Of a stretch of DNA of 62,924 nucleotides, positions 29,646-62,800 are shown in pieces. The DNA lies in assembly GCA_030603385.1 (NCBI GenBank), contig JAUVXW010000026.1:1-62924 (forward strand), written 5' to 3'. Below the pieces are notes generated by a model. That model worked only from the letters and a program-made list of their open reading frames with translations, did no database searches and was not told where the DNA came from. The first letter of the stretch is position 1, and each line of letters starts with the position of its first letter. The DNA is from Promethearchaeota archaeon (GTDB taxonomy: Archaea; Asgardarchaeota; Lokiarchaeia; Sigyniarchaeales; SOKP01). Made by a program: the position numbers and the translations under genes.

Positions 29646-29725
29646 CTATTTCTTCATTTTTTTTCATTTCATGAACTATATTAGTTCGACATATCTTGTC
29701 ATCACTGAATTTTGCACCCACTCTT

Positions 29726-29741
29726 AATTTTTCTTTAAATA
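29726..29741 (+). promoter_or_regulatory. Cluster promoter motif AATTTTTCTTTAAATA
   Basis: About 45 nt upstream of the 29786 ATG; identical to the copy at 43056-43071. Confidence 0.7.
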
Positions 29742-29785
29742 CTTTCAATTTTGTAAATAAATCAAAAATAAAATCGTGATAAAGA

Positions 29786-30040
29786 ATGAATATTAGGCAA
29801 ATAGTAAATAAAAATAAAATAAGGAGAATATTGCATTCTAGAATGAGACTTCGTGAGGTCTATAGGAAAGCATACTGGTTAGAATTTGAAAATGAAAGTA
29901 TTCTGAGTTTCTTAGCTAAATATAATGTAGTGATGAGCAGGCAGGAATCTTCTTCGAATATTCCAAGGGATACAAAAGTTCAAGATTATATTAATATAGA
30001 TAACCAGCCCGAAATTGTTATTGATATAATCGAATTATAA
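29786..30040 (+). CDS. Hypothetical protein (84 aa, basic N-terminus)
   Basis: ORF preceded by the cluster promoter motif; no recognisable domain. Confidence 0.55.
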   Translation: MNIRQIVNKNKIRRILHSRMRLREVYRKAYWLEFENESILSFLAKYNVVMSRQESSSNIPRDTKVQDYINIDNQPEIVIDIIEL

Positions 30041-30190
30041 TTAATAGACACTCAATTTTCATTCAGCAGTTTCTTAGTGATGCCTGGTCTTTATATATAA
30101 AACTTCCGTTAAAAAATCTGCAAGTTAGTCAGCAGGGATGAAATAAAGTCAGCTCTAAAGTATGTATAACGAATAGAAGCATGTAATTCG

Positions 30191-31537
30191 TCATATAATC
30201 TCTTTCTTAATGTTTTCTCCTACTATTGATCTCTTAAGTTTTTGTTCTTGGTGTTCTTTATATTTTTTAATCGTTAGAAGCTTTTCTAGTCCTAATAGTT
30301 CTTCTAATAGATATGATCCTAGCTTTTTATTCACCTTTATAGGCTGTTCTATTAAATGCTTATCTACTAACCGCGTCAAGGTTTCCAACTGCCTCATAAA
30401 CCATTGTTTGTAATCCTTCCAGTTATTATGAAAGGAAGGCATCTCATCTATAAGCGTTTGATCTGAAACTCGGGATTCAAGAAGAGTAGGACGTTGTTCA
30501 GTTTCAGGACTAGCACCGAGCGGTTCAGAGGTTGGTAAAGGTGGGGTATCCTGACGAATTCCTAACTTGGTAAAGATCGTCTCGAGATCATCTATATCTG
30601 AGTCTATTAAGGTGTATTGAGAGATACTCATCTGAAGCCATTTATCTATAAATTTCTGGGGAATTCCTTCTTTCCAATGGCGATTCCGTAGGTAGTTATA
30701 TAACTTGAGCGGACTAAACAACTCCTCTAACTCCAAATATTCGGGATTTACTCTTTTACTTCTAAATTCGTGTAACTGTTGGATAAATTCTTTTCCAATA
30801 CGTTTATTAAGTGAAACGATTATCTCATATTCATTGGAGAAATCTTTGAAATCTTTTCTTGAACCGATTGATGATGGTTCATAAGAATCGGATTTTAATT
30901 GAGAAGCGGGGGGAATATTAACTCCAAAATATCGGCTAGTAAAATCTAGGATCTTTTGCCAATTTTTTTGTTCAAAGCCTTTTAACAGCTCTGGAAGCCT
31001 ACTTGATGAACCGTTTTGGTTTACTTCTGTAAAGATTTGTGATGCTACATTTTTGATACTTTGTATCTTGTCTTGTAAAATGGTAATATTTTGTGAACTG
31101 GATATAAGATGCTGTTCAAATGCTAAATTCGAATTGTGTTCAAGATAATTTAAGAACTGATTATTTTTTTTATTGTAAAAAATAAATTCGCTGTCATTCG
31201 CTATCTCAGGGATGATCTCATTGGAATTTAACACACAGCGAATATTATCTATAGCCAATATCTCTTTTACTTTATTCCTATCTAAATTATAAATAAAGTA
31301 AAAAGTAGGTGATTGAGAATAGGAATTGCTCGATTCAAACTCTAATATATTTCTTAAATCGTGTAATGCCGTGGATTCTAAGTCAATTGGAGTATGCCCT
31401 GCGGTAAATATTTCAAGGGCATGGAGATGTTTCAAATCAACATAGGGAAATATAACTAGGTTTTTCTGCTGAAAAAAAAGAATATTTAAAAATTCCGGGG
31501 TAATAAAATCTTCTCCTGAATCCACTTTTTCTCTCAC
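30191..31537 (-). CDS. Hypothetical protein, last gene of the roadblock-MglA operon
   Basis: 448-aa ORF starting 12 nt after the GTPase stop; no recognised motif. Confidence 0.7.
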   Translation of the reverse strand: MREKVDSGEDFITPEFLNILFFQQKNLVIFPYVDLKHLHALEIFTAGHTPIDLESTALHDLRNILEFESSNSYSQSPTFYFIYNLDRNKVKEILAIDNIRCVLNSNEIIPEIANDSEFIFYNKKNNQFLNYLEHNSNLAFEQHLISSSQNITILQDKIQSIKNVASQIFTEVNQNGSSSRLPELLKGFEQKNWQKILDFTSRYFGVNIPPASQLKSDSYEPSSIGSRKDFKDFSNEYEIIVSLNKRIGKEFIQQLHEFRSKRVNPEYLELEELFSPLKLYNYLRNRHWKEGIPQKFIDKWLQMSISQYTLIDSDIDDLETIFTKLGIRQDTPPLPTSEPLGASPETEQRPTLLESRVSDQTLIDEMPSFHNNWKDYKQWFMRQLETLTRLVDKHLIEQPIKVNKKLGSYLLEELLGLEKLLTIKKYKEHQEQKLKRSIVGENIKKEII

Positions 31538-31548
31538 GTAAAAAAAAT

Positions 31549-32196
31549 TTATTCTTGAAAATAATTAAAAATTGCCTGAAGAATAATATGCTTAAAGCAT
31601 TGGACTACATTCTTCCCTTGCAAAGCCTCAGCAGGATATATTACATTTGTACCGTCTGGGAATGTTTCTAATAAAGGCAACCCAAGAGCTACCTTAAATT
31701 TTGGAATACCGATAGCATTCTCTAAGTCTCGCTTGTTTAATTGTACTAAATAAGGTATGTTTTTAGGGGATGCGAAGCTCACTAACTCTCTAAAACTTCT
31801 TTTGTTCTGTTCTAATTTCTCAGGATCAGAATCACCAATAAATATAATCCCATCTGCGCCGTCTAACACATACTCTCGAGTCGACAAGAATCGTTCTTGC
31901 CCTGTACATGTTACCACATGAGCGATAATATTAAACTTGACATCTCTTAGTGTAAACTTAAATAAAAGATAGAGCGAATCTTCCCATAAGGTTCTTCCTT
32001 CTGTGGTCTCAATAGAATATCCTTTCGATAATTTTAAGAGATCGAATTTTTCCCTCAATCGAAAGAAGTTAGTTGTTTTTCCACTCTCCCCCGGACCCCA
32101 ATAAACAATCTTAAATTGAAGCATGTTCTCTGAGTCGTTAAAATCGAACTTATCACTTACTTCTAACTCACTTTCATCTTTCTGATGGGTTTCCAT
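31549..32196 (-). CDS. MglA-like small GTPase
   Basis: KIVYWGPGESGKTTN (G1), RTL (G2), TCTGQ in place of DxxGQ as in MglA TVPGQ, NKRD (G4). Confidence 0.88.
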   Translation of the reverse strand: METHQKDESELEVSDKFDFNDSENMLQFKIVYWGPGESGKTTNFFRLREKFDLLKLSKGYSIETTEGRTLWEDSLYLLFKFTLRDVKFNIIAHVVTCTGQERFLSTREYVLDGADGIIFIGDSDPEKLEQNKRSFRELVSFASPKNIPYLVQLNKRDLENAIGIPKFKVALGLPLLETFPDGTNVIYPAEALQGKNVVQCFKHIILQAIFNYFQE

Positions 32197-32230
32197 TTTA
32201 TCACCGCTTACCTATTTTTTAATGATGTTT

Positions 32231-32779
32231 CTAACTAATACTACCGAGTTTGTCAGAGAAAATTTCTTTCTTTAGCTCTTTAATATGTTCTTTTATTTCT
32301 CTCTCTGACATTTTTAACATTCTTTGGGTTGATTGGTTTTGCTCAATTTCTTCTTTTATTTTCATGGCAAATTTACTGAGCTGAAGGAAAATAACTCCTA
32401 AATTCACCTCATTATCGGAAAGTAAAACGACTAATATGTCGCGCTTCCCCTTTTTATGAAGCTCAACAGCTCCGATTGACTTAACGAACAACCGCATATC
32501 ATTATAAATTATTGTTGCTCTTTCAAGAGAATCAGATTCAAAAAAATCCTGCCCTTGTCGTGCAACACCATATAGAGCTGCGCCAATAGAGCTTAAATCC
32601 CAATAATTCAGCTTACGGTCAAAACGAGAATCGATGGCTATAATTTTTGCGTCTTGATCGATTGCAATTAGACCATAGATATATCCTCTGCGAGTTAATT
32701 TCCCATAGTTATACCTTATATCATCCAACACTTCAGTTATACTATTTTTATATAACACTTTTGGAATGTGGTTTACCAT
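32231..32779 (-). CDS. Roadblock/LC7 (MglB-like) protein with C-terminal helix
   Basis: IAIDQDAKIIA..LSSIGAALYG..ILVVLLSDNEVNLGVI roadblock pattern; adjacent to the MglA-like gene. Confidence 0.75.
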   Translation of the reverse strand: MVNHIPKVLYKNSITEVLDDIRYNYGKLTRRGYIYGLIAIDQDAKIIAIDSRFDRKLNYWDLSSIGAALYGVARQGQDFFESDSLERATIIYNDMRLFVKSIGAVELHKKGKRDILVVLLSDNEVNLGVIFLQLSKFAMKIKEEIEQNQSTQRMLKMSEREIKEHIKELKKEIFSDKLGSIS

Positions 32780-32832
32780 TTTTAGACCTATTCTATTATA
32801 TAATTAAGTTACCTAAGAGAATTGAGTAAGAG

Positions 32833-32850
32833 TATTTAAAGAAAAAAATT
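32833..32850 (-). promoter_or_regulatory. Cluster promoter motif AATTTTTTTCTTTAAATA
   Basis: 54 nt upstream of the roadblock ATG. Confidence 0.7.
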
Positions 32851-32859: not shown

Positions 32860-33429
32860 CTACTTTAATCCTAATTTATTTCGGGTTCTATGAAATGCAT
32901 AGGCACTACAATTACAAAAAACTCTTAAATTAGTTTGTATAATTTTTTTTTCATGCTCTTTATCATTTAAATCTGTTACAAATACAACAACCGCAAGCTG
33001 CGTGGTAAATTGAGGTAAAAAGCAATGTTTTTCAAGATTATTTTTGAGGATTCTTGCGTTCTCTTTGGCTCGAGGGTAGTCAAATATTGGAGCAAATCGA
33101 TGGAGTTTATGCAAATAAATTTGTAGTTTTCTAAGACTTTTTGTATAGCCATATGTAAATGAATAGCTTCGAAGGAATCTTCTAAAATATACTAGGTTAA
33201 CTAAAAACTTGCTTATTACAGGATGGATAAGATTAACGGGTAGATCAATACTCTTAGCTATAGCCTTATACTCTTGAGATGTTAAAGCTCTGATATTTTG
33301 AGGGTGTGAAATAAAACAAACTTCACGAAACAGATAGTTTAACACGATTTTCTCAACTACTTGTTGTGATCTCCCTATAGTTGTTAATGGTGAAATCCAA
33401 GAGTAATCTTTTTTAACTATTTGAGTCAT
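32860..33429 (-). CDS. Hypothetical protein with C-terminal TFB-like cyclin/HTH repeat
   Basis: TTQLAVVVFVTD...IIQTNLRVFCNCSAYAFHRTRNKL parallels the TFB pattern [31 protein letters not shown]. Confidence 0.55.
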   Translation of the reverse strand: MTQIVKKDYSWISPLTTIGRSQQVVEKIVLNYLFREVCFISHPQNIRALTSQEYKAIAKSIDLPVNLIHPVISKFLVNLVYFRRFLRSYSFTYGYTKSLRKLQIYLHKLHRFAPIFDYPRAKENARILKNNLEKHCFLPQFTTQLAVVVFVTDLNDKEHEKKIIQTNLRVFCNCSAYAFHRTRNKLGLK

Positions 33430-33478
33430 AGTAAATGGGATAAAAGTAATTATATCTGAAAAAAAGTAATGCTCAATC

Positions 33479-33495
33479 TATTTAAATGAAAAAAT
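33479..33495 (-). promoter_or_regulatory. Cluster promoter variant ATTTTTTCATTTAAATA
   Basis: 50 nt upstream of the 33429 ATG. Confidence 0.55.
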
Positions 33496-34838: not shown

Positions 34839-35084
34839 CTAATTTTCATCTTCAAGGTCTTCCATTATGGAATCAAAAAATTTTTTGGCTTTTTCAGGAT
34901 CTTTAAGTTCCTTGAATGAATCGAAAAAACCACCCATCTCTGTAAAAGCCAATATTTCGTCATCGGGTATGACTCCAATTTGTTTTTTGTCAAATTCCAA
35001 TAAACAATCTGGACATTCGATTGAGTCTGGATACTCCATAACCTTTTTTGTCTTACATCGAGGGCAATAATACTTTTTCGCCAT
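34839..35084 (-). CDS. Small zinc-ribbon protein (probable start MAKKYYC at 35084)
   Basis: CPRC...CPDC with acidic tail. Confidence 0.7.
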   Translation of the reverse strand: MAKKYYCPRCKTKKVMEYPDSIECPDCLLEFDKKQIGVIPDDEILAFTEMGGFFDSFKELKDPEKAKKFFDSIMEDLEDEN

Positions 35085-35202
35085 AGGTCCGATAAAACCT
35101 ATAAAAATGTATTTGGTAGCTAAAGATAAGTTGATTATACATATAAAACAATGTGTTGTTAGGATTTTCATTGCATACATATCATACATTGCAAGATAAA
35201 CC

Positions 35203-35254
35203 TATTTAAATAAAAATTTGGCTACTAATCGTTTACGTTTTTCCTTTAAAAATA
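35203..35254. promoter_or_regulatory. Back-to-back divergent cluster promoters: AAATTTTTATTTAAATA (-, 35203-35219) and TTTTTCCTTTAAAAATA (+, 35238-35254)
   Basis: Both have the T-tract upstream of the TATA box relative to their gene; there is no upstream same-strand gene to terminate. Confidence 0.6.
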
Positions 35255-35301
35255 ACGAGCTTTTTTTGACTATAATTATAAAAATTTTATGAACGAGAAA
35301 G

Positions 35302-35664
35302 ATGAAAAAAGAAAAATATTACCTTCTTAAACCCGAGAAGAATTCAAAATGGGTGGCCTATACTTTCATTGGGATAATAGTTTTTATAGTAATCTACTTT
35401 CCCTTCTTTGCGGTCAACTTGCGTTATCAATTAGGTGCGGTATTCTCAAAGATATTCGATACATTCGGAGTGGCGTGTTTGACGATTGGTAGTGCTATGA
35501 CAGCGATTAGTATATTAAGCTTATTTATAAGTAAATCAATAAACACACGATGGTTTATTCTAGGAATCGTCTTACTGTGGATTGGATGCTGGTGTACTGG
35601 AAGTGTGCTCAACATATTTGGGATCATTATAGGGAACGAGACATCAAATCCTGGATATCACTAA
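35302..35664 (+). CDS. Hypothetical 3-TM membrane protein
   Basis: Three hydrophobic segments. Confidence 0.7.
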   Translation: MKKEKYYLLKPEKNSKWVAYTFIGIIVFIVIYFPFFAVNLRYQLGAVFSKIFDTFGVACLTIGSAMTAISILSLFISKSINTRWFILGIVLLWIGCWCTGSVLNIFGIIIGNETSNPGYH

Positions 35665-35697: not shown

Positions 35698-36363
35698 TCA
35701 ATAAAGAAATGGGATTAATTTTTTAGTGTTTTTTTTATATTCTTCGAATTTTTCACCAAATTTTTTTTCCAGTATTCTTTCTTCTTCATTAATCCTCATT
35801 CTAATTAATAAAAAGTAATAAACAAACATAATAATGAGAGTAATGATACATCTAAAAACAAGGCAGAATCCAATAGTTGCAATTAAACCCCCGGAATACA
35901 TGGGATTTCGAATATAATTATAAACTCCCTGAGTAATGAGTTGATGATCCTCTTCAGTAATTAATTCACCAGTTCCAAACCGTCCTAATTGAGCTCGAGC
36001 AACAATTATAAGCAACCCACCAGAAATATAGAGACTGAAACCTACATAACTTATAATAATATTGTCCCAAAAAGGAATTAGCTGGGATATAAACAACTTA
36101 TTCTCATAAAAGGCTCCAATTAAAAAAAAGGGAGATAATAGCAACATGGTTAGTATCAAAAAGTCAAACAGCTTTGAGACATTTCTTTGCTGAGGAATAG
36201 ACCGTAATAACGTATCCACAAGCGTTATCATATAAGCTGTAAGTAAGTACAGAACATATAAAGGAATTGAATAGATCTCTGGTACAAATAATAGATAGAA
36301 TATGTTCTGATAGATTACATAAAGAAATATAAAAAGAGCAAGCTTTTTTCCAAAATCTTTCAT
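35698..36363 (-). CDS. Isoprenylcysteine carboxyl methyltransferase (ICMT/Ste14)-family membrane methyltransferase
   Basis: HQLITQGVYNYIRNPMYSG, RINEEERIL..KFG and LIPFLY motifs. Confidence 0.85.
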   Translation of the reverse strand: MKDFGKKLALFIFLYVIYQNIFYLLFVPEIYSIPLYVLYLLTAYMITLVDTLLRSIPQQRNVSKLFDFLILTMLLLSPFFLIGAFYENKLFISQLIPFWDNIIISYVGFSLYISGGLLIIVARAQLGRFGTGELITEEDHQLITQGVYNYIRNPMYSGGLIATIGFCLVFRCIITLIIMFVYYFLLIRMRINEEERILEKKFGEKFEEYKKNTKKLIPFLY

Positions 36364-36478: not shown

Positions 36479-36700
36479 TCAATGATAGACATGAAAATAT
36501 TTGAAACCTGTAGAGGACCCACAGAGAATTAGTAACACTACTGATCCTACGATAACACCAATCATTTTATGTCGTTGAAATTGTCCTAGAAAAAGCCATC
36601 CAATAATCCCTACAATCAATCCTAATGCTCCTACAAGAGATCCTAATGCAATTAAGAATTCAATCGACTCAGCAACAGCATCAAAATAGTCAAATATCAT
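36479..36700 (-). CDS. Small 2-TM protein, VirB2/CedA1-pilin-like architecture (tentative)
   Basis: 73 aa; two Gly-rich hydrophobic helices joined by the short basic loop QFQRHK. Confidence 0.6.
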   Translation of the reverse strand: MIFDYFDAVAESIEFLIALGSLVGALGLIVGIIGWLFLGQFQRHKMIGVIVGSVVLLILCGSSTGFKYFHVYH

Positions 36701-36724
36701 AATGTAATGCTATAATGCCAAACT

Positions 36725-36767
36725 TATATAAAGAAAAATTTGGAGTCGCAACTTTTTCCTTTAAATA
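36725..36767. promoter_or_regulatory. Back-to-back divergent cluster promoters: AATTTTTCTTTATATA (-, 36725-36740) and TTTTTCCTTTAAATA (+, 36753-36767)
   Basis: 25 nt to the 36700 ATG and 47 nt to the 36814 ATG. Confidence 0.7.
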
Positions 36768-36813
36768 TTGTGGCTATGTTAGAATTCACTAAAATTTCAA
36801 ATTTGAGATTGCT

Positions 36814-37131
36814 ATGAGAAAAATAAAAGAAATTGGCGCGTGTCCAAACTGCGATTGTGGGCTCATAATGTTTAAAACAAACAATTACAAACGGTTTGTG
36901 AAATGTGAGATTTGCGGAATGTCATATTCGTTGCCAAAACGAGGCAAAATTTCAAATTCAGCAATAATCTGTCCAAGAAGCAGGGTCCCAATATTAATCG
37001 TGGAAAAAGAACAGCAAAAAGCATATTTTTGGACAGATCAACCCTGTTTTAGCTGTGTTGCCTTTGATAAATGTAACGCGATTGAGGAACTTGTCAATGA
37101 ATTTAAGTCGTTAGAGGTGTATGGATATTAA
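36814..37131 (+). CDS. Stand-alone topoisomerase-IA-type C4 zinc-ribbon protein
   Basis: GACPNC..LIMFKT..KRFVKCEICGMSYSLPKRGKI..CP resembles the archaeal TopA C-terminal Zn ribbons. Confidence 0.65.
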   Translation: MRKIKEIGACPNCDCGLIMFKTNNYKRFVKCEICGMSYSLPKRGKISNSAIICPRSRVPILIVEKEQQKAYFWTDQPCFSCVAFDKCNAIEELVNEFKSLEVYGY

Positions 37132-38146
37132 AATAGTAAGAAAAGTATCTTTAATACTTCTTTTCTGCTTTTTTTTATGTTTTTTTAGCGTTGTTAATAA
37201 TTCGAGTAAATTTTGGGTTAGAGCCCAATTAAGCACAATTGATCCTGAATTACCTGATAAAGTATATGCATTCGTAGCCCCAAGTGATACGCTTACGTTT
37301 GAAGATCTGCCTTTACAGAAGTATTACAAGTATTATATTTGGGTGGAGATTGTTACCCCTCACAATTGTTCCCTTACAATTACTTTATGGGATCCTGACG
37401 GTATGCAATTTGATATCTTTGAAAATGATTTATTTTATGATCCCGATTTTGGGAGATACTATGAGATTCCCTTTGGTACGGCGTTAGGAGGCAATTGTAC
37501 AATTGAGTTTTTCGTAGTCACCTTCGAGAATCTGAATATGTATATCAGAATAGAGCAAGGTCCTAAGTGTCTTTTTGATATAATTCCGTGGGAAGAGATT
37601 GGGGATATGGTTTTGTATAAGGTAACACGTTTTTCTAATGGGATGACCATCTCACATAACGTTACCTTCAAGATAGATTATATGTATAAATTCTACATCG
37701 GGAGACTTTCAGCTATTTCATTTAAAGAAAATAATGAACATAGACTTGATTATACCATTTATGATCCTGATGATTTAGAATATGAGATTTATTATAATGA
37801 AAGCCTTTCTCCTATTAATGAGGTGGATAAATTTATGTTCGGAACAGCGATTGAGGGTTTTTACATGATAACATTATCTATATACAGCGAAGTGGAATAT
37901 TCAAATATAGCGTATGCCATAATAGAACATCACAAGATTAGTCATGTGGTAGATCCGAACCAGACAGACCAAGAACCGCCGAACAATACAACCCTTCAAA
38001 CAAATAAGTTTTCAATCCCTAAAGAATGGACAGCGGGAATTCTCATTGTCGGAGGGATTATAATAGTAGGTGTGATCATCATCATAGTAAGAAGCCGAGA
38101 ACGAAATTTCGTAAACTTTAAGGAAAGAATTGACCGCAAAAAATAA
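37121..38146 (+). CDS. Secreted, C-terminally anchored protein with two tandem beta-domains
   Basis: Signal peptide; repeats YKYYI..WDPDG..FGTALGG / YKFYI..YDPDD..FGTAIEG; TM and basic tail. Confidence 0.7.
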   Translation: MDIKIVRKVSLILLFCFFLCFFSVVNNSSKFWVRAQLSTIDPELPDKVYAFVAPSDTLTFEDLPLQKYYKYYIWVEIVTPHNCSLTITLWDPDGMQFDIFENDLFYDPDFGRYYEIPFGTALGGNCTIEFFVVTFENLNMYIRIEQGPKCLFDIIPWEEIGDMVLYKVTRFSNGMTISHNVTFKIDYMYKFYIGRLSAISFKENNEHRLDYTIYDPDDLEYEIYYNESLSPINEVDKFMFGTAIEGFYMITLSIYSEVEYSNIAYAIIEHHKISHVVDPNQTDQEPPNNTTLQTNKFSIPKEWTAGILIVGGIIIVGVIIIIVRSRERNFVNFKERIDRKK

Positions 38147-54468: not shown

Positions 54469-56496
54469 TTGATAGTTATGACGGTTCTAGAAAATGAGAT
54501 CAGTAGGAAGAAAAACACATTAGGATCATATTATGAAGAAGCAAAAAAAGCTATAGCAGCACAAAATATCGAGCAGGCAATTGATTTAACCGAAAGAGGA
54601 CGCATACAAGCCGAACTGGAAAATGATTATGAATGGGTTCAGAGATTTAACTCGTTTAATTCGGCAATTAAAAAAAACCCATTACTAAGTACTACTATAG
54701 TGAAAGAGGATATAACAAAAATAAAAGGTGTTGGACCCTCTGTAGCACAAAAATTGCGAGAGCATGGATTTGATACGATTGAAACGCTTGTAAGATCGAC
54801 TATACCTCAATTATCAAGTATAAAAGGAATTGGACCAGTAACAGCCCATAAAATAGTAGAAGGAGCTATATCGCTCACATCCCATAAAAAATTAAACGAT
54901 TTTCCTCAACCAGATGATAAATCAGAAGAAACTCCTGTTCATGAAGAAATTGAAGAATACAATCAAGAAGATTATAATAAAATTATAAAAGAAATGAGAC
55001 CACAAAAATGGTTTTCTGATAAATATAAACGACTTAAAACCGGAGTCTGGTACAATCCACAGAAACAAAATTCCGTCCAAAAATCTAAAATGGCATCTAA
55101 GGAATCTGGAAATTTCCCCCAAATTAATAAGAAAACTAGCCAACATATTACCCCTACTATACATGAAGAATTTGTTGATTTTGAGGATGTAGAAGATGTT
55201 GAAGATAAAGAAGAGTTTACCAAAATACCAGATGTTGCGCTAAGTTCTCCTAAGTTAACATTCATAGAAGAGATACCATTAGTAGTCAAACAAAAAGATA
55301 TTCAGCCATTACAGAAACTAAAAACTATTCAAGATGAGAAAATAGATCATTCTGAAAGACAAACAATTGAAAATCAGGTTGTGCAAATCTTCCAAAAATA
55401 TGACTATAATATTATTAAACAAACTCCACTTTTGAAAGATATTTTTACCCATGCCGATGTGGTTGCGGTAAAAAAAGCTGATTTTAACGATGTATTAGAT
55501 TTCGTTATAATTATTCCATTAAAGCTAAATAGCCTTAAAGGAGAATTACAAGTCTCAAGTGAAACGATTAAGTATGTTCCTAACCATCAACAATTTAAAG
55601 AAAATGGTTCAGCGTTTAAAATGCTACTTGATTCATATTTTGATACTATACAAGAAAGCCATAAGACCATTCATCATGATCTCATAAATAAAGGTAATTT
55701 CTATTCTTACATAAAACGCCATTTTGGGATAAATATCACAATTAAAAAAACGTTGACACGTAAGAACTTATTTTTTACAGAAGGTAATATGCAATTAAAA
55801 GTGCTTATAGAACCAGTATTATTGTGTCAAAATGATGTCGGATTTTTAGAAAAAGACATTCCGTTTGCATATCTCAGCGATATAAACCTTCATATCATCA
55901 AAGAGAATAATCTTTCTGATTTTGTACATTTCATAGAGCAGAAATATATCTTATTAGAAACACATCGTAAACAAAATCATTCATTAATATCCTATAATGA
56001 ATCATACGACCAATTTCTAAAACGTTCTACAATTCTTTCCATCCCATTTATAGGATTTGGCGTTGTACTTCTCTTTCTGATATTATTTCAATCATTTGAA
56101 ACAATGAAATTTCTTATTAATATTGGATATGCACTTCTTGGAGTTTTCTTTATATCAATACCATTCTTCTATATGAAAGTGTTGAAACCGAGATTAGAGA
56201 TCCAAGCTGAATTCTTCAATCCTTATTGCCAAAAAGAATCTCAACTAGATGAGACGAGTTTAGTATTAATTAATGAAAAGTTTTCTCCTGAGATGATGTC
56301 GCAATTTGGGTATGAATGCTTAGGAAAACATCATCAGTCTAAAGTAATTATGCAAATTGAACAGGATCAGATTAAAGAAAGTATTGATCAAAATAGATTA
56401 TTGACTAAGGTTAAAAATGGCGGATTTTTTGAAAAAGAGATTCCAGAGAAAAATAAAGATTTCATAAACAGATATGGATCATTTTTAGAGGATTAA
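54469..56496 (+). CDS. Membrane-anchored HhH DNA-binding protein with degenerate PD-(D/E)xK-like domain (likely start 54478)
   Basis: IKGVGPSVAQKL..IKGIGPVTAHKI; disordered linker; IENQV..ADVVAVK..IIPLK; two TM helices near the C-terminus. Confidence 0.72.
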   Translation: MIVMTVLENEISRKKNTLGSYYEEAKKAIAAQNIEQAIDLTERGRIQAELENDYEWVQRFNSFNSAIKKNPLLSTTIVKEDITKIKGVGPSVAQKLREHGFDTIETLVRSTIPQLSSIKGIGPVTAHKIVEGAISLTSHKKLNDFPQPDDKSEETPVHEEIEEYNQEDYNKIIKEMRPQKWFSDKYKRLKTGVWYNPQKQNSVQKSKMASKESGNFPQINKKTSQHITPTIHEEFVDFEDVEDVEDKEEFTKIPDVALSSPKLTFIEEIPLVVKQKDIQPLQKLKTIQDEKIDHSERQTIENQVVQIFQKYDYNIIKQTPLLKDIFTHADVVAVKKADFNDVLDFVIIIPLKLNSLKGELQVSSETIKYVPNHQQFKENGSAFKMLLDSYFDTIQESHKTIHHDLINKGNFYSYIKRHFGINITIKKTLTRKNLFFTEGNMQLKVLIEPVLLCQNDVGFLEKDIPFAYLSDINLHIIKENNLSDFVHFIEQKYILLETHRKQNHSLISYNESYDQFLKRSTILSIPFIGFGVVLLFLILFQSFETMKFLINIGYALLGVFFISIPFFYMKVLKPRLEIQAEFFNPYCQKESQLDETSLVLINEKFSPEMMSQFGYECLGKHHQSKVIMQIEQDQIKESIDQNRLLTKVKNGGFFEKEIPEKNKDFINRYGSFLED

Positions 56497-56500
56497 TCAC

Positions 56501-57175
56501 ATGAAAACATTATCTTATCCTAGACTTGCACTATTAGCAGGTGTTACTCTGCTTTTTGTCTCACTCTTCTTAGAATGGTATTCATTTCAAGTAGTTGATA
56601 CAAATAATGAACTAATCGTATCATGGAGTTATAACCTATTTTTTGAATGGACAACGGATTTTCCAACGGGAGCAACCGTAAATGAGGATTATAGGCCTTT
56701 AAATCTTAACGTGCCGTTTTATATTAATATCTTATTTATAGTAATACTTATATTAGCTGTAGGGGTAGGTACCATTCAAGATATTAAAGTATCTAATAAT
56801 TCTAGTAATACAAGATATTATTCCTATATTTTTGCTTTTTTACTTGTGCTTACGTTCTTCTATGTTGTATTATTCCCGATCATCTATTTATATCCTAATG
56901 AGCTCTATTATCCCGTTTTAACTAACGTAGATATTGATTTGAATACTATCACATATTATTCTATTGGTATTGGATATATATTACAATTATTTGGATTTGT
57001 CCTTATTTTTCCCTACTCTCTTTATTATCTATTAACTATTACTGCTCTTGAGAGAAGTCGTCAAATACCTGAGATCCAAATTGAGAAAATAATCCAAGAT
57101 ATTCAAGAACCGATTGATTTAGATGAATTTATCGCAGAAGAGGAATTGAAAATTAAAAAGGGGGATTATTCATGA
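56501..57175 (+). CDS. Hypothetical 4-TM membrane protein
   Basis: Four hydrophobic helices with two polar loops; translationally coupled. Confidence 0.75.
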   Translation: MKTLSYPRLALLAGVTLLFVSLFLEWYSFQVVDTNNELIVSWSYNLFFEWTTDFPTGATVNEDYRPLNLNVPFYINILFIVILILAVGVGTIQDIKVSNNSSNTRYYSYIFAFLLVLTFFYVVLFPIIYLYPNELYYPVLTNVDIDLNTITYYSIGIGYILQLFGFVLIFPYSLYYLLTITALERSRQIPEIQIEKIIQDIQEPIDLDEFIAEEELKIKKGDYS

Positions 57176-58038
57176 CTGTGAATTATCAAGTCTTCGATTT
57201 GAAGTTAAAACGGTTGATACAAGCCTGTAAGGAGACTGGTAATTACAAAAAGCTAGCAGTAGTTGGATTCATCTCAACCAGTAATCTTGTAGACGAGATT
57301 GCACTAAAATTAGGAATGAGACCTCGTTATAAAGAAAAAAGTGAAGAACTTTTATTTGAATATATGACTGCGGTAAACGATATATTTGAAAAAAACCTGC
57401 AAATTCAAATTTTTAATAATGAAACTATCACTACAATCAAAGAAATAGAATTACTCTTCTTACGGAACCGCGGAGATATTCCCTACAAGCATATAAAAAA
57501 CCTAATCTTTGTTTATTATGAGCTTAGAAAAATTGAAGTTCCAAATCTCTATAAAGGAATGACAGGAGAGGATTACTTTGAGTCTTCTAACTTATATATG
57601 CTTAATGTGATTCCTCGCGGGATGAGACAGAAACGAGACACAAACTCTAGTAAGTTTAAACCAATGCTATTACACAAAATTAAGGAGCAAGAAAGAGTAC
57701 TTCAAAATAATTTAAATAAAAAACTCGACCAAACGAATATAGAAAGGGCTATTTTCTTAAAAAACATCAAAAATAGTCTAAAAGAGAGCAATAAGAACAG
57801 GATAACCTTTCAAGGAAGCTTAAAGGATAATATGGATTATGGTAAATCTCAAAATATTCTTATAAAATATTTCCTTATTGGGATTGCGTTTATATCTCTA
57901 TGTTTAGGGGGTTTAATTGCCGTTGAGATGTTTTTATATCCGAATACTATGCCTGTGTTGAGTAACCTTCTTCTCATTTTCTTCGGAATCGTCATAATTA
58001 TGATTTTTTCATATAAGAGTTTGAATAAAAAGAGGTAA
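57172..58038 (+). CDS. Hypothetical protein with two C-terminal TM helices
   Basis: Soluble helical N-terminal domain plus hydrophobic hairpin; ATGA overlap. Confidence 0.75.
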   Translation: MTVNYQVFDLKLKRLIQACKETGNYKKLAVVGFISTSNLVDEIALKLGMRPRYKEKSEELLFEYMTAVNDIFEKNLQIQIFNNETITTIKEIELLFLRNRGDIPYKHIKNLIFVYYELRKIEVPNLYKGMTGEDYFESSNLYMLNVIPRGMRQKRDTNSSKFKPMLLHKIKEQERVLQNNLNKKLDQTNIERAIFLKNIKNSLKESNKNRITFQGSLKDNMDYGKSQNILIKYFLIGIAFISLCLGGLIAVEMFLYPNTMPVLSNLLLIFFGIVIIMIFSYKSLNKKR

Positions 58039-58047
58039 CTATGAAAA

Positions 58048-61000
58048 ATGGCAAGTTTTAGTAAAAAATATTCTTCAGAAGAAGGGAAAAAAATGCGAAT
58101 TGTAATAGATGAGAAAAGCTCAAAAAAAGAGATCCCGCGAATCTGGAAAATTAACCCTTCATTTAAACATATAAATAGTGCCTTCACCATAGCAAGAAGT
58201 ATATTTTTTGTAGTAATTGTGGTATTTTTTATGGTTTCTACGTATCTTATCACTTTTGACCTGTCTATGGCTATAGGAGCAGGTGTTTTAATTATTACTA
58301 TGTTTATATTTGTCTTTCGAGATCATATTTATTTTCTTAATAGTTTATCTTCTCTTTCCTTCAAGAAAGCGAAAAAAATTTACCCCTTTCAAGATATACT
58401 ATTTCTTTTAGACGGAGAAACATCATCAACAGTTTATATTTCTAATAAAAGAGACTTAGTGCATACTGGTCTTGCCATCTTTAGAATAAAGGTGATTCCC
58501 GAAAATATTCATGCCTCCGTAAACTTGTTTATAAAAAGTCTTAGTGAATATAAGAATATGGTAAGCTTCACCTACCAAATAATTCAAACTCCGCTTCTTA
58601 AAAAGGGTCAAAATGAATTGGGAGGTTCGGTCCAGACTAATATTTACTTCTGTGTGTATTGCTCTGTAAAAGGAATTTTGAGTCGCAATAAATTTAGAGT
58701 ATTAAAGGATAAGATGTATAGTTTAGAAAACATATTACAAAGCAATTTTGTAGGAAATTTTCATCACTTTCAGATCTTACATCTTTCTGGGCGCAATCTG
58801 ATTAACGCGTTAAGAACCTATTTTTTTAAGTTTCCTTCAAAAATAAGAAATGAAGAAATAGAGGTGGTAAGGAAATTCAGAATAAAACCGGATTTTCTTA
58901 TAAAAGCTCTTTTTTGCTCTATTTTATTTATTAGTTCAAGTATTCTATTATCTTCTTTGGGATTATCACTTATTTATATCCTTTTATTTAATATTGCTCT
59001 ATTAGGTGTTTTAGTCTATTTCTGGTGGCAAGAGTTGTTATTTGTTATATTTAATCAATCATTAATTAAAAGTAGTTACTTTATCACAATAAATCCTTTT
59101 AGCGATACTGCTTTTTTCTGTTATCGAGGGATACCTGATTCCATCTTTGCCTACGTTGATAATAAGCTATTGGTTGGAATGAAAATGTTTAATTTGGCAT
59201 TGATACGACCTCCATCATATTTTAGAACTGATAAGTTTATCCAAGGAATTATGAATCAAAAAGTCTCGTTTGGATATACCTGCATAAATTCTCCTCTATC
59301 TTTTGAAGTATTCTATAAAAAATATCTTGATTACTTAAATCTTAACACACATAGGAGTCTATTGCTTTCTGATTGGAGAGTGCAGACTAAATTAGACGGG
59401 ATTAATTGGTTAGCAATGCGTTCTGGGATGTGGCAAACTTTTCTTACGCTTTCTGCCTGTGAATTCAAGTATATTGAGACACTTTCAAGTGAAGTAATTG
59501 AAAATCTTGAAGAACAATTACACTTAAAAGCCCTGAAATTATATAATGCGTTCAATACACATTTCTTTAATTGTGACTTGGTACAGCTCAGAAGGCGAGT
59601 TCTTCTTTCAGGTATCATATCAACTTTAGTAAAAAACAAAGATTTTACAATTAATGGAACACATCTTAATTATCTTATAATTCAAGGAAAGTTTCTCGTT
59701 TCTCTTACTGAAATAGTTGACGAGCTAAAAAAGGGAATTACAACACGAGTCGCCTCTGAGTTTAACACTCCATTAAAACTTAAAAATAGTATTGTTATTG
59801 GGGATACAATTAATACTGAGGTGCTCGAAAAAGAGATTCCTTTTGGTTTTACTAAAGAACAGCTCTCTAATATCCTCATTGTAAATGGCACATATTCCAG
59901 TAGAGAACTCCTTGCGATGAAGATCGTGTCACAGTTAGTCGAAAAAAACAAACCTTCATTGATTTTTGACTTTAGAGGGGTATGGTCTAAATTACTCAAA
60001 CACTTTGAAGACACCCCCTTTGAAAATGATTTTCTTTACTTTAAGCTCGGTACCGCCTTTAGTTTAGATCCCCTTAAGTCCAATATTCCTTATGATAAAG
60101 ACAATGTAGAGTTTATGGACTATATCTTTGATGCATACGCATTAGCGTTTCAAAAGCAAAAAAATACCATAGATATAATGAGAAATGCCATCCAGCAGAA
60201 CCCAAATTTAGACATGGAATCTCTTAATGTCCATTTAGTCAATCAAAATAAGTGGGAAAATCCTGTAAGTGATACATTACTTGCATTATTTCGCGACCTC
60301 AATCCCCAAGACTTAGCGTATCTCCATATTTCAACTTTAAAAACTGGTGAAAATATCATAACATTTCAGGATTTTATTAACACCAATAAAACGGTTATTA
60401 TCGATCTTTCCATTATAACGGATTTACCCAAATTAGTGTTTGTGGCATTCCTGATTATTTCAAAAATTATTCATTTTCTCAAGCGAAACTCAGAGTATGT
60501 AGAAAGGTATATATTTATCCCTCATATAGATATGTTCTTTAGAAGTTTTAATATTGAACGAAACAATGACTATGGAAAAATTTACAAATTCTTAGATCCA
60601 CTTATCGAAAAGGGGTTTGGTCTACTCTTTGGGGCAAACCAGATGTATTATCTCCACCCTAACTTGGTTAAATACTTTAATAATATCGTCACCTTTAGAG
60701 CAACTGATAAACGCGATATTGGCGCTTTAATCAATAGGATGAACCTTCAAGAAATGCATGGCACAGGTATATACTCACGGAGCAGAAAGGAGACGTATCA
60801 AATCCAGTATTTAGAAAGCATGAAAAGTCAGGAAGCGATAGTGAAACGGTCAGACATCTATCAAGCCTTTCCTGTATGTTTTGATTGGAATGATATAAAA
60901 GATCGTACTCTCATGGATAATGAGGAGATTATCGCATATATGGATAGACAGGGATATAATTTACGAGATACAGAAAGAATAATATTAGACCAAATAAAGA

Positions 61001-61830
61001 AAACAATATTTGAAAAAGACCTAGGAATGTATAGTGGATATATAACTGAGGTAAAAAAATTCCTCGAATCAATTGGCACATTAGATCAAATTGGAAACCT
61101 TTACGAGAAAAAACTGAAAAAAGAACTAAAGAAGGTAATTTATCCCAAAGCTTCACGGCATTATAAAGATAAAGCAGATATAAAAAGATGCAGAGATGAG
61201 ATATTTACTCTATTGATAAGACACGAATATATAGTGGAAAATCATCCTAAGACGGCAAGTGGTTCGGAATCACTTAGAACATCTTATTCCGTAGGATCTC
61301 AGTATCAGAAGGCATTAGAAGATGAATTTGAATCTAATCAACCATATGCTCTAGAAGCTATTGAAAATGAGTCTACTAATTCTTTAACTTTTTTAGAAGA
61401 ACGTCATCAACAGCCACGAAAGTTCATAATTGAGGAAGGTAATTTAAAAAAAGCGCTCATGCGAGAATTTAGCAACTTTAACTTCGAAGTCTTTACCATC
61501 TATAATTACATAAAAAATGACGATTTCAAAAATGCGCTCAAACTCGAACACAATTTCATACGAAGGTTTCTTACGGAAGTATACAAACATTATTTTAACT
61601 CTGATGACATGGTTACCACCAAAAATTTAAATGATTTCATTAAGCACCTTAGTGTAGATTGTAAGATGCCTTTTACTAAAGAAGAATTACAAAGTTATTT
61701 AGAGCAATTTAAGATGATTGATTTTGAGTATAATAATGCAGAATCCAGATCTAAAGAACTCTATGAATACTTGTTTATATTTTTCAGTAAACTGCAATCA
61801 TACATATACAATGAAAATGAGGAGGATTGA
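58048..61830 (+). CDS. Membrane-bound VirB4/HerA/FtsK-superfamily protein with degenerate Walker motifs
   Basis: IVIG..PFG..NILIVNGTYSSRE..PSLIFDFRG..W; TVIIDLS; YIFIPHID; two TM hairpins. Confidence 0.72.
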   Translation: MASFSKKYSSEEGKKMRIVIDEKSSKKEIPRIWKINPSFKHINSAFTIARSIFFVVIVVFFMVSTYLITFDLSMAIGAGVLIITMFIFVFRDHIYFLNSLSSLSFKKAKKIYPFQDILFLLDGETSSTVYISNKRDLVHTGLAIFRIKVIPENIHASVNLFIKSLSEYKNMVSFTYQIIQTPLLKKGQNELGGSVQTNIYFCVYCSVKGILSRNKFRVLKDKMYSLENILQSNFVGNFHHFQILHLSGRNLINALRTYFFKFPSKIRNEEIEVVRKFRIKPDFLIKALFCSILFISSSILLSSLGLSLIYILLFNIALLGVLVYFWWQELLFVIFNQSLIKSSYFITINPFSDTAFFCYRGIPDSIFAYVDNKLLVGMKMFNLALIRPPSYFRTDKFIQGIMNQKVSFGYTCINSPLSFEVFYKKYLDYLNLNTHRSLLLSDWRVQTKLDGINWLAMRSGMWQTFLTLSACEFKYIETLSSEVIENLEEQLHLKALKLYNAFNTHFFNCDLVQLRRRVLLSGIISTLVKNKDFTINGTHLNYLIIQGKFLVSLTEIVDELKKGITTRVASEFNTPLKLKNSIVIGDTINTEVLEKEIPFGFTKEQLSNILIVNGTYSSRELLAMKIVSQLVEKNKPSLIFDFRGVWSKLLKHFEDTPFENDFLYFKLGTAFSLDPLKSNIPYDKDNVEFMDYIFDAYALAFQKQKNTIDIMRNAIQQNPNLDMESLNVHLVNQNKWENPVSDTLLALFRDLNPQDLAYLHISTLKTGENIITFQDFINTNKTVIIDLSIITDLPKLVFVAFLIISKIIHFLKRNSEYVERYIFIPHIDMFFRSFNIERNNDYGKIYKFLDPLIEKGFGLLFGANQMYYLHPNLVKYFNNIVTFRATDKRDIGALINRMNLQEMHGTGIYSRSRKETYQIQYLESMKSQEAIVKRSDIYQAFPVCFDWNDIKDRTLMDNEEIIAYMDRQGYNLRDTERIILDQIKKTIFEKDLGMYSGYITEVKKFLESIGTLDQIGNLYEKKLKKELKKVIYPKASRHYKDKADIKRCRDEIFTLLIRHEYIVENHPKTASGSESLRTSYSVGSQYQKALEDEFESNQPYALEAIENESTNSLTFLEERHQQPRKFIIEEGNLKKALMREFSNFNFEVFTIYNYIKNDDFKNALKLEHNFIRRFLTEVYKHYFNSDDMVTTKNLNDFIKHLSVDCKMPFTKEELQSYLEQFKMIDFEYNNAESRSKELYEYLFIFFSKLQSYIYNENEED

Positions 61831-61831
61831 A

Positions 61832-62197
61832 TTGAGCAGTAAAAAACAAGGCCAACAAAAAATGTTATCTGAGATGATCGAAAAGATCTTATTTGATGAG
61901 AAGGAACTCGAAGTACTTAAGGATTTAATTAGTGATATACGGATCGGAAGGACTGAGCCGAAACAATTAAGAGCAGCGATAATTGAGAATCGGGCAAATA
62001 TCTTAAATAAAATTCTAAATATTTTTCCATACTATAGCAAACAGATATCCTACCAACAACAGATTGATGATTTTACTGAAAAAGACTCATCCTTACAAAT
62101 ACAAAACGAACTGAAAGAAAAAAACGAACTCCTTAGACGAGTAGGGGAATGGATGCAAGACACTCGTAAAAAATTAGAAGAAAAAACTGATACCTAA
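61832..62197 (+). CDS. Hypothetical coiled-coil protein (TTG start after GGAGG; ORF track extends it to 61718)
   Basis: SD at 61821-61825; start immediately after the previous stop codon. Confidence 0.65.
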   Translation: MSSKKQGQQKMLSEMIEKILFDEKELEVLKDLISDIRIGRTEPKQLRAAIIENRANILNKILNIFPYYSKQISYQQQIDDFTEKDSSLQIQNELKEKNELLRRVGEWMQDTRKKLEEKTDT

Positions 62198-62800
62198 ACA
62201 TTGTGTTATTTTACTTTCTCTTAATAAAGTTAAAATTTACTCAATTCTTACATAACATCTTTTAGCATAGCTATAATCTGGAGCATAATAGGTTTTTTTC
62301 AACGTTAAGCAAGCCCAATGCTAATCTCAAGAAAATGGGGGTTTGTTGCATGGTTTATTTCTTTTCTTATTACTTACGTTAGCTATTCTTACTTTTCTAT
62401 ATTACTTGTTATGTCGTTCTATAAAATCAAATTCAAATTTGAAAAGGTACCCCTTGAGATTATGGTTCCCATTATTGAACCAGTAATTAATTTTCTTTTC
62501 GGACTGAATTATCCATTATTTTCCTTCTTTTATTATTTATAACAAAATAAGAGAAATTATTTGATTCCTACATTTGAACGTAGTCCTAACATTAAAACCA
62601 TCGAATTTTATAAAGTAATAATAATGAAACTATTTTTAGATTAATAATAACCCTCTAATTAAAATTGATCATTTTCGACATTGAAGTAAAGACTTAAATT
62701 TTGTCGGTATGATTATTATATAGAGGAGTTTATAGAAAGTGCTATAAGAATAATATTTTAGCTAAATTACTGAATGCACTCAAAACAAAAGGTGTAAGAA

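Follow-up and report, generated by a model that had tools for sequence, protein, structure and literature searches.

Introduction

In Sulfolobales, the TFB3-dependent DNA-damage response governs a set of genes in which envelope or DNA-transfer proteins, the Ups pili and the Ced DNA importer, whose CedB component is HerA/VirB4-like, are combined with DNA repair and recombination genes (PMC6101591, PMC6101594). TFB3 is a truncated co-activator without a DNA-reading core, and its targets are scattered. Other TFB paralogues, such as the haloarchaeal TFB families and the Sulfolobus TFB2 that drives the cell-division wave, partition transcription in a sigma-factor-like way; TFB2 promoters have a BRE similar to that of TFB1 promoters and differ in spacing (bioRxiv 10.64898/2026.09.06.749720). 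In bacteria, ECF sigma and sigma-K systems with site-2 protease control offer an analogy.

Here we describe a conserved but dispensable 32-kb gene island of a Loki-type Asgard archaeon, which carries its own divergent TFB, one rare promoter shared by about 16 transcription units, a second set of DNA-recombination enzymes and membrane proteins with DNA-binding and translocase-like folds. Nothing yet shows that this island moves DNA between cells. The window analysed is a stretch of 62,924 nucleotides (Promethearchaeota archaeon, assembly GCA_030603385.1, contig JAUVXW010000026.1), and the island occupies 29.7-62.2 kb. A first-pass annotation, made from the sequence alone, had proposed that this block is a chromosomal, inducible alternative-TFB regulon that couples a membrane DNA-transfer apparatus to a private recombination toolkit, with dormancy or cell fusion as other possibilities. 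A literature search returned no paper describing the island.

Results

Gene content of the island

To identify the island genes, the window was compared with Pfam and NCBIfam profiles. The observation made in the first-pass annotation was borne out: divergent extra copies of recombination genes, a divergent TFB, a GTPase operon, several membrane proteins and a shared promoter are all present (Table 1). The RadA paralogue has a Rad51 domain (PF08423, 232 bits against a cut-off of 22; NF003301, 316 bits against a cut-off of 259), the Walker A GKT, an N-terminal HhH and a second, C-terminal HhH. The FEN1 paralogue carries XPG_I (78.6 bits) and XPG_N (22.5 bits) domains, both at or above cut-off. 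The Hef-like helicase matches NF010337 with 572 bits, below cut-off, over positions 8-553 of 781; its aligned C-terminus lacks the ERCC4 nuclease motifs (DxRE, GDY, ERK), which are present in the paralogue encoded on another contig, C18, and no nuclease was recognisable. The Hel308-like helicase scores 416 bits with NF002654 against an equivalog cut-off of 887, and its domain-4 hit of 26 bits falls just under the cut-off of 27, which leaves its membership of Hel308 proper undecided. A RadB-like P-loop protein (TIGR02237, E 1.6e-6), an Arf-family GTPase (Pfam Arf, 33.8 bits) and an HhH membrane protein were also detected.

The roadblock-like partner of the GTPase has no PF03259 match on contig C48, which carries the island, even at E 1, whereas hhalign against the genome's own roadblock proteins gives 86%, E 5e-6, with controls under 1%; these two results do not settle whether the operon encodes an MglA/MglB-type pair. 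The polytopic HExxH membrane protein has invariant HExxH and PSxxD motifs, but Pfam M50B or M50 hits appear in only 4 and 3 of 12 members, with a best E of 0.004, below cut-off, and a PDB profile search with this family gave only a spurious TM match. It is a candidate site-2 protease, and its M50 assignment is weak. For the TopA-like Zn ribbon of the first-pass annotation, we obtained only a sub-threshold Lar-type Zn-ribbon hit. The 189-aa protein, which had been considered as a second TFB-like factor, is not supported as such, as hhalign gives 0.2-0.3% against both TFB profiles. The pilin identity of the 73-aa two-TM protein was not examined, and the small TM proteins (73, 112, 120 and 224 aa) were not compared with CedA, CedA1 or CedA2.

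Table 1. Features of the island (positions in the window; T-run promoter coordinates where given).
Position	Strand	Feature	Promoter	Observations
29729..30040	+	84-aa ORF	29729-29741	Left edge of the island; ORF without orthologue in the relatives checked
30191..32845	-	Operon: roadblock-like 182 aa (32231-32779), MglA/Arf-like GTPase (31549-32196), unknown 448 aa (30191-31537)	32833-32845	Operon and promoter kept in G132, G135, G083 and closed genome G151
32860..33492	-	Unknown 189-aa protein	33479-33492	Orthologues in G132, G135 and L018
33527..34656	-	FEN1 paralogue	34644-34656 (variant)	Probably leaderless; canonical copy on C18 37% identical; orthologues 49-67% identical
34839..35215	-	Zn-ribbon protein, 116-aa ORF	35203-35215	True start probably an internal Met; promoter back to back with the next one
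35239..35664	+	Promoter and 120-aa multi-TM protein		
35698..36363	-	ICMT/PEMT-type methyltransferase		Probably a passenger; absent from the island of most relatives
36479..36737	-	73-aa two-TM protein	36725-36737	
36754..38146	+	Promoter, 105-aa double Zn ribbon and 341-aa protein		341-aa protein with hydrophobic segments at N and C termini (surface protein, by eye)
38650..40113	-	RadA paralogue with an extra C-terminal HhH	39945-39957, plus orphan copy 40101-40113	40% identical to the two canonical RadAs; promoter spacing of 53-59 nt kept in G132, G135 and L018
40267..41100	+	Enoyl-CoA hydratase (ECH)		Passenger gene, not in the islands of relatives and without the motif
41190..43068	-	Operon: polytopic HExxH membrane protein (candidate M50/S2P-like protease, 42258-43034), 112-aa TM protein, RadB-like ATPase (41190-41897)	43056-43068	
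43365..44655	+	Divergent TFB (408 aa): Zn ribbon, two cyclin folds, extra C-terminal domain of about 100 aa	Canonical: purine-rich BRE plus TATA at 43365	
44736..47403	+	Promoter and 872-aa membrane-anchored protein with an alpha-alpha toroid (prenyltransferase-like) domain (surface protein, by eye)		Next to the TFB in most relatives, including the dispersed genome; about 3 kb away in genus g3
47413..50687	+	Operon: unknown 200 aa, Hef-like helicase without ERCC4 motifs, DUF1922 Zn-ribbon protein	47413-47425 (variant)	
50705..51506	-	Three small ORFs (67, 87 and 74 aa)	50949-50961 and 51256-51268	The 67- and 74-aa ORFs are paralogues
51620..54185	-	Hel308-like helicase	54172-54185	CxC...CxH insert seen by eye; true start probably Met7, making the transcript leaderless
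54437..62197	+	Membrane operon: HhH plus 2-TM protein (675 aa), 224-aa multi-TM protein, 288-aa C-terminally anchored protein, 1260-aa TM plus HerA/VirB4-fold pseudo-ATPase, 159-aa protein	54437-54449	Five-gene operon intact in closed genome CP070831, where the promoter site lies 19 nt upstream of the HhH gene
G and L numbers denote relatives of the source genome (G000); G132 belongs to the same genus.

A true but divergent TFB

As no PF00382 match was found on contig C48, and the protein gave no Pfam hit at E 0.01, the TFB was examined by fold and profile comparisons. The NCBIfam TFIIB profile hits residues 8-104 (E 7e-4), and the Zn-ribbon cysteines C17, C20, C34 and C37 are invariant in 32 homologues. 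The AF2 model matches yeast TFIIB (Foldseek E 2e-7) and superposes on the P. woesei TFB core 1d3u_B with a TM of 0.76 and an rmsd of 3.5 A over 206 columns. hhalign against the genome's six canonical TFBs gives a probability of 97%, E 1e-10, over 257 columns. However, the helix that reads the BRE, TEVTxRxR and invariant in these six TFBs, aligns to RMSTIQxQ, both arginines being replaced by glutamine, and the B-reader region is also replaced. The replacement helix is conserved in 9 orthologues. The TFB gene itself is preceded by a canonical promoter with a purine-rich BRE, conserved in most of the relatives examined.

A rare promoter shared by the island units

We next asked whether the promoter (a T-run, then C or A, then the TATA box) is specific to the island. 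A loose pattern occurs 218 times in the 3.89-Mb genome, and all 13 copies in the window fall between 29.7 and 54.5 kb, where 1.4 are expected. Nine of 10 TATA sites upstream of island ORFs carry the T-run, against 12 of 620 elsewhere. A relaxed scan gives 17 correctly oriented sites, which precede nearly all units; every site points at a downstream ORF, at about 20-28 or 45-56 nt. The promoter is kept at orthologous genes in G132, G083, G135, G109, G147, G040 and L018, and at five dispersed loci of closed genome CP070831. In G008, extra HerA-like paralogues outside the island also carry a loosely matching T-run site upstream.

Whole-genome counts are noisy. The excess of the strict motif over a reversed control is clear in G000, G151, G163 and G170 but absent in the island-bearing G083 and G147. 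Counts in island-free against island-bearing genomes were 166 against 143 control, and 294 against 179 control: the trend fits, but the lack of excess in G083 and G147 keeps this comparison from deciding either way. About 40 strict copies lie outside the island in G000, and island-free genomes also hold copies at background level. Candidate regulon members outside the island in G000 (contigs C3, C8, C13, C26, C38 and C57) are mostly small unknown ORFs, whose conservation with the motif was not demonstrated. Recognition helix and motif are both invariant across the relatives, so no covariation supports their pairing.

Extra copies, co-conservation and absence of mobile-element signatures

The regulon proposal was to fall if the recombination genes were the sole housekeeping copies, if the genes were not co-conserved, or if the block was bounded by att sites. 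On the first point, canonical RadA (two copies), FEN1, Hef and Hel308 lie on other contigs and lack the motif. On the second, the island and its promoter recur in at least six genera of one Lokiarchaeial family. The TFB and the HerA-like gene are present or absent together in 34 of 41 family genomes (25 have both and 9 have neither), the 7 discordant cases being mostly fragmented or incomplete assemblies, and neither gene was found in 26 other families of the phylum. The RadA and Hef paralogues are missing from CP070831, so the toolkit is not an obligate unit. Co-expression, also named as a condition, was not examined, nor were transcription start sites or TFB binding. On the third, no flanking direct repeats and no tRNA were found, Pfam and PHROGs searches returned no integrase, relaxase, capsid or terminase, PHROGs gave nothing meaningful for a virus or plasmid, and the GC content equals that of the flanks. 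Rfam found no family in the window. PADLOC gave only generic helicase-domain hits and nothing for the seven unknown or membrane proteins tested, which rules against a defence island. LigA (24582-26492) and an 886-aa surface protein (26985-29645) were rejected as island members, as they have no motif and no orthologues in the islands of relatives.

The membrane operon

The domain at residues 570-970 of the 1260-aa protein superposes on VirB4 (Z 24.3), DndH-C (24.2), HerA (23.4) and TrwB (20.9), and follows N-terminal TM hairpins, as in VirB3-VirB4 fusions. However, the P-loop reads NGTxxxRE across the family, with no Walker A lysine in any homologue examined, and the Walker B position reads IPHID rather than hhhhDE. 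The protein is therefore probably not a motor, which weakens any DNA-pumping model. No other T4SS component was recognised, and no VirB2, VirB6 or CedA homology was demonstrated. The HhH domain of the 675-aa protein has no signal peptide and so, by eye, faces the cytoplasm. An ESM Atlas search with the middle domain of this protein gave no usable hit, and the idea of a dead Hjc/Mrr nuclease was not put to the test.

Discussion

Our analysis partly supports the interpretation of the first-pass annotation: the block is chromosomal, and an alternative-TFB regulon is likely, although untested, whereas intercellular DNA transfer remains an inference and nothing ties the membrane proteins to it. We favour, with moderate confidence, the view that the island is a chromosomal accessory gene set of one Lokiarchaeial family that behaves as a single regulon. 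In this view, the housekeeping TFB should transcribe the island TFB gene from its canonical promoter. The product keeps the Zn ribbon and both cyclin folds needed to bridge TBP and RNA polymerase and, together with TBP, would select promoters in which a run of 5-9 T followed by C or A replaces the BRE directly upstream of TTTAWATA, switching on about 16 transcription units together. The products would be a complete second homologous-recombination and branch-processing set (RadA with two HhH domains, a RadB-like mediator, FEN1, a nuclease-less Hef/FANCM-like translocase, a Hel308-like helicase and several Zn-ribbon proteins), an envelope module (a membrane-anchored HhH DNA binder facing the cytoplasm, a HerA/VirB4-fold ring protein that has lost its ATPase P-loop, small TM proteins and large surface proteins), an MglA-type GTPase switch, and a candidate intramembrane HExxH protease next to the TFB, which could link an envelope signal to TFB activity. 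The gene identities and folds, the extra-copy status, the promoter enrichment, the conservation of genes and promoter and the co-occurrence rest on direct evidence, whereas it is by inference that this TFB reads the T-run promoter, that the programme is inducible, and that recombination is coupled to DNA held at the membrane for exchange, uptake or repair.

Compared with the TFB3 response, the island TFB is full length with a rewritten recognition helix, the promoter has a distinct BRE-position element, the genes form an island, and the recombination enzymes are dedicated paralogues; no sequence homology to Ced or Ups proteins was shown. Compared with TFB2, the BRE position holds a different sequence and the cognate helix has lost both conserved arginines. 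As in the bacterial sigma systems with site-2 protease control, a specificity factor is encoded next to a polytopic HExxH membrane protein and a large surface protein, and target promoters differ from housekeeping ones, but no anti-factor was identified and the proteins are unrelated to sigma factors.

A possible but less likely alternative is that the same regulon is purely an intracellular response to DNA damage or replication stress, in which the extra recombinases repair the cell's own chromosome and the membrane proteins tether or organise DNA, or remodel the envelope. The recombination enzymes are indeed the best-identified part, the HerA-fold protein has no ATPase P-loop, the HhH domain appears cytoplasmic, and no pilin, VirB6, CedA or relaxase was identified. 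However, this does not explain why large surface proteins, small TM proteins and a VirB4/HerA-fold membrane protein are under the same promoter and co-inherited. About as doubtful is a more speculative reading, not excluded by our data, in which the island is a switchable mating or DNA-exchange programme of Asgard archaea: an envelope signal, possibly relayed by the HExxH membrane protease, would release or induce the dedicated TFB, surface proteins would mediate cell contact, DNA would be handed over at a HerA/VirB4-fold membrane ring bound by the HhH tether, and the private RadA/RadB/Hel308/Hef/FEN1 set would integrate it. This would be a prokaryotic analogue of a meiosis-specific recombination toolkit in the closest relatives of eukaryotes. 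Competence or proto-sex is one possible reading, not a result.

It is unlikely that the T-run element is an operator for another factor, or an intrinsic A-tract-type feature read by housekeeping TFB and TBP, the island TFB being then a co-factor, decoy or repressor. No binding data exist, Sulfolobus TFB3 acts as a co-activator rather than an independent initiation factor (PMC6101594), TFB2 targets show a BRE similar to that of TFB1 targets, and motif copies lie outside the island and in island-free genomes; however, the element sits exactly where a BRE lies, is directional, and co-occurs with a TFB whose BRE-reading residues are replaced and then conserved. Still less likely is a domesticated or decayed mobile element, a conjugative-type element or provirus that brought its own TFB, recombination genes and transfer ATPase. 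Presence is patchy within genera, with joint loss, some genomes (G008, G163 and G170) have several TFB-like or HerA-like copies, the left flanking genes (LigA and the 886-aa gene) were not found next to the island in G132, and a VirB4/HerA fold is present. Against this stand the lack of mobile-element signatures, the dispersal of the genes over at least five loci in a closed genome where they keep the promoter, the scrambling of gene order between genera and the insertion of host-type metabolic genes (ECH, ICMT). Least likely is a cell-cycle or differentiation programme (chromosome segregation, cell fusion or dormancy), which the precedent of a TFB paralogue driving cyclic transcription, the GTPase with its roadblock-like partner and the membrane DNA tether would fit, but the absence of the island from four genomes that are at least 97% complete argues against a core cell-cycle role.

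Archaeal TFB paralogues are thought to act like sigma factors, but clean pairs of a rewritten recognition helix and a distinct promoter element are rare. This island would offer one, with about 16 target promoters in 32 kb, in a form that can be tested directly in vitro. It also shows that Lokiarchaeia keep a second recombination machinery, separately controlled in this view, next to membrane proteins with DNA-binding and translocase folds. That bears on how Asgard archaea exchange or repair DNA, and on whether specialised recombinase sets (compare Rad51 and Dmc1) predate eukaryotes.

Gene content of the island

The island lies on contig C48 of a 3.89-Mb draft genome (G000; 58 contigs, 94% completeness), and the window is the whole of this contig. 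GC content is 29-36% throughout the contig, with no step at the island, and bases 1-24 kb hold ordinary metabolic genes for acyl-CoA metabolism, nitronate monooxygenases and similar functions. Searches of the window for tRNA genes and Rfam families returned none. Pfam and NCBIfam profile searches identified the Arf/MglA-type GTPase, FEN1, RadA, the RadB-like protein, the Hef-type and Hel308-type helicases, the DUF1922 Zn-ribbon protein and the HhH protein of the island, which are listed below together with the other features located in this study.

Features of contig C48 and related loci in other contigs and genomes
Feature	Location	Strand	Remarks
Small ORF with preceding promoter-like stretch	24217-24480 (ORF 24298-24480)	+	46% identical to the C-terminal half of the island DUF1922 protein
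LigA, bacterial-type NAD-dependent DNA ligase	24582-26492	-	adenylation, OB, HhH and BRCT domains
886-aa surface protein	26985-29645	+	contains an internal repeat
Paralogue of the 886-aa protein	G000, C50:23572-25524		about 6 kb from one of the two canonical RadA genes
Island	29.7-62.2 kb
Arf/MglA-type GTPase	31549-32196
FEN1	33527-34621
74-aa ORF	38339-38563	+	69% identical paralogue on contig C25
RadA	38650-39891		second, C-terminal HhH
Inverted repeat, 20 nt	39964-39983 / 40059-40078		95% complementary
Orphan T-run promoter	40101-40113	-	209 nt upstream of radA
RadB-like P-loop protein	41190-41897
TFB	43429-44655		408 aa
Promoter	44717-44759
Hef-type helicase	48043-50163
DUF1922 Zn-ribbon protein
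Hel308-type helicase	51620-54163
HhH protein	54469-56496		two C-terminal TM helices
Membrane operon and hel308	CP070831, 0.21-0.22 Mb
Roadblock-GTPase-448 operon and small ORFs	CP070831, 0.49 Mb
Protease-TFB-surface protein trio	CP070831, 0.96 Mb
Zn ribbon	CP070831, 1.21 Mb
FEN1	CP070831, 2.64 Mb
659-aa protein	G000, C39 near 8.4 kb		T-run motif 135 nt upstream
305-aa protein	L018, 143-1060	-	weak OB-fold (tRNA_anti-codon) hit
TFB-like paralogues	G163, C9:389-395 kb and C6:684 kb

The Hef-type protein matches NF010337 only over positions 8-553 of 781, and its C-terminus lacks the DxRE, GDY and ERK motifs that are present in the paralogue on contig C18; it is therefore a nuclease-less translocase. 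Two island genes, encoding an ICMT/PEMT methyltransferase and an enoyl-CoA hydratase, look like passengers; they lack the shared promoter and are missing from the islands of relatives. The 74-aa ORF, which has no T-run promoter and is not conserved in the islands of relatives, is probably an unrelated insertion. Just outside the island, LigA, an unusual enzyme for an archaeon, has no T-run promoter and is absent from the islands of relatives.

The 182-aa protein is roadblock-like only by hhalign, with a probability of 86%, and the 189-aa protein is not TFB-like. The 258-aa polytopic protein, which lies next to the TFB in every genome in which both were located, has invariant HExxH and PSxxD motifs and weak M50 hits. 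It is a candidate intramembrane protease, which suggests, by inference, a signalling link to the envelope.

A divergent TFB and a predicted HerA/VirB4-like fold

The island TFB escapes detection by Pfam. Its family of more than 170 homologues comes from Promethearchaeota/Lokiarchaeia-type MAGs or from metagenome contigs. The AF2 model has a pLDDT of 70, reaching 80-93 over the cyclin core, whereas an extra C-terminal domain of about 100 aa is modelled poorly. The best PDB matches of the model are TFIIB, TFB and Brf (E 2e-7; P. woesei TFB core, TM 0.76), and hhalign against the six canonical TFBs of the genome gave a probability of 97% and an E-value of 1e-10 over the Zn ribbon and both repeats. 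In this alignment, the canonical invariant TEVTxRxR helix corresponds to RMSTIQxQ and the B-reader is also replaced; the new helix is conserved in nine orthologues. Some genomes, such as those of the relatives G163 and G170, carry two to four TFB-like paralogues, some of which match only positions 13-340 of the profile and so lack the C-terminal domain. In G163, the copy at C9:389 kb has motif sites clustered around it.

The language-model neighbours of the 1260-aa membrane protein are the DUF87, HerA and TrwB families, and its ESM Atlas neighbours are also DUF87/HerA clusters. The model of residues 540-1120 (pLDDT 77) aligns to VirB4 at Z 24.3, to DndH-C at 24.2, to HerA at 23.4 and to TrwB at 20.9. 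However, the P-loop between strand and helix reads NGTYSSRE, the family consensus is NGTxxxRE without lysine, and the Walker B position reads IPHID. The protein is therefore probably a non-catalytic ring or scaffold.

A shared promoter element

Regions upstream of the island genes show the pattern T(5-9)-C/A-TTTAWATA. The strict pattern occurs 52 times in the genome, of which 11 are in C48, and ten of these 11 lie 19-53 nt upstream of an ORF. A looser pattern occurs 218 times in the genome; all 13 copies in the window lie in 29.7-54.5 kb, where 1.4 are expected (our Poisson arithmetic gives about 3e-9). Of 620 TATA-like sites upstream of ORFs of at least 100 aa elsewhere, 12 have the T-run, compared with 9 of 10 in the island, the exception being the TFB gene itself. 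A relaxed scan lists 17 oriented sites, including variants at FEN1, the hef operon and hel308. The sites fall into two spacing classes, about 20-28 and 45-56 nt from the start codon, which suggest leaderless and leadered transcripts. By contrast, the promoter of the TFB gene has a purine-rich BRE plus TTTAAAAA, followed by a GTGATC Shine-Dalgarno-like element, and is conserved in most of the relatives examined.

The orphan promoter upstream of radA is followed by the inverted repeat, and this arrangement may represent a small RNA or a leader. The small ORF at the left of LigA is preceded by a T-rich promoter-like stretch that resembles the promoter at 44717-44759, and may be an outlying regulon member. 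A homologue of the 659-aa protein encoded on C39 lies directly downstream of an extra HerA-like paralogue on contig C76 of the relative G008, and another lies about 11 kb from the HerA-like paralogue on contig C59 of that genome. In the closed genome CP070831, a 641-aa DUF998 gene follows the membrane operon. The regulon may continue beyond the end of contig C48.

The recombination genes are extra copies

The first-pass annotation had stated that its proposal would fail if the island genes were the sole housekeeping copies. We searched the genome by tblastn, which found other copies of each of the four recombination genes RadA, FEN1, Hef and Hel308. RadA has copies on C44 and C50, at 40% identity to the island copy; FEN1 has a copy on C18, at 37%; Hef has copies on C18 (with nuclease) and C10, at 43% and 36%, respectively; and Hel308 has a copy on C9, at 30%. 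The two other RadA genes are full-length and of canonical type (Rad51 domain 300 and 321 bits), and CP070831 also has two. No promoter motif lies upstream of the RadA (C44, C50) or FEN1 (C18) copies, and none was seen next to the Hef and Hel308 copies. The objection that these are the sole housekeeping copies therefore does not hold.

Conservation and distribution of the island

We next asked whether the genes are co-conserved, as the proposal required. A JGI contig whose TFB is 46% identical keeps the gene order from FEN1 to the HhH membrane gene, as well as the promoter at orthologous genes. Regions fetched from six genomes of five genera contain 14-29 of the island genes; the order is collinear in G132, G083, G135 and G109, and rearranged in G147 and G040. 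It is scrambled again in G163, which also has a mini-island with a second TFB-like gene, the RadA paralogue and a second GTPase pair. Promoter sites and their spacing are kept: the RadA promoter, for example, sits 53, 59, 53 and 56 nt from the start. In L018, the JGI relative, the 305-aa protein sits between the roadblock-like gene and the 189-aa gene, with a T-run motif upstream, and may be an RPA/SSB-like island member that is missing from this window. In CP070831 the genes are dispersed, but a strict promoter site lies directly upstream of five of these units. The RadA and Hef paralogues were not found in that genome.

The TFB profile finds matches in 21 of 25 genomes of one GTDB family and in none of 126 genomes from 26 other families of the phylum. 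Across 41 family genomes, the TFB and the HerA-like gene are both present in 25 and both absent in 9, four of which are at least 97% complete. The remaining 7 are discordant, mostly in fragmented or incomplete assemblies. The island is thus dispensable and inherited or lost as a unit. As related genomes are not independent, no statistic is given.

Interpretation

A mobile element bounded by att sites had also been named in advance as an outcome that would count against the proposal. No integrase, relaxase, capsid or terminase was found in the window with Pfam and PHROGs, and the only flanking repeats are the promoter copies themselves. Dispersal with retention of the promoter argues against an element that moves as a unit. 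PADLOC, used to look for defence systems, gave only generic helicase hits.

The closest described systems are the TFB3-dependent UV response with Ced and Ups (PMC6101591, PMC6101594) and the cell-cycle TFB2; we found no description of this island in the literature. Taken together, these data confirm what the first-pass annotation had observed, namely a block that combines a divergent TFB, extra recombination genes, membrane proteins and one unusual promoter. Its interpretation, a regulon coupling DNA transfer to recombination, is supported only in part. The gene content, the extra copies, the promoter enrichment and the joint conservation of genes and promoter rest on direct observation, whereas a single regulon governed by the TFB is our reading of them; coupling to DNA transfer between cells is unproven, and we regard it as doubtful. 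The explanation that we favour, with moderate confidence, is an alternative-TFB regulon with a private recombination toolkit.
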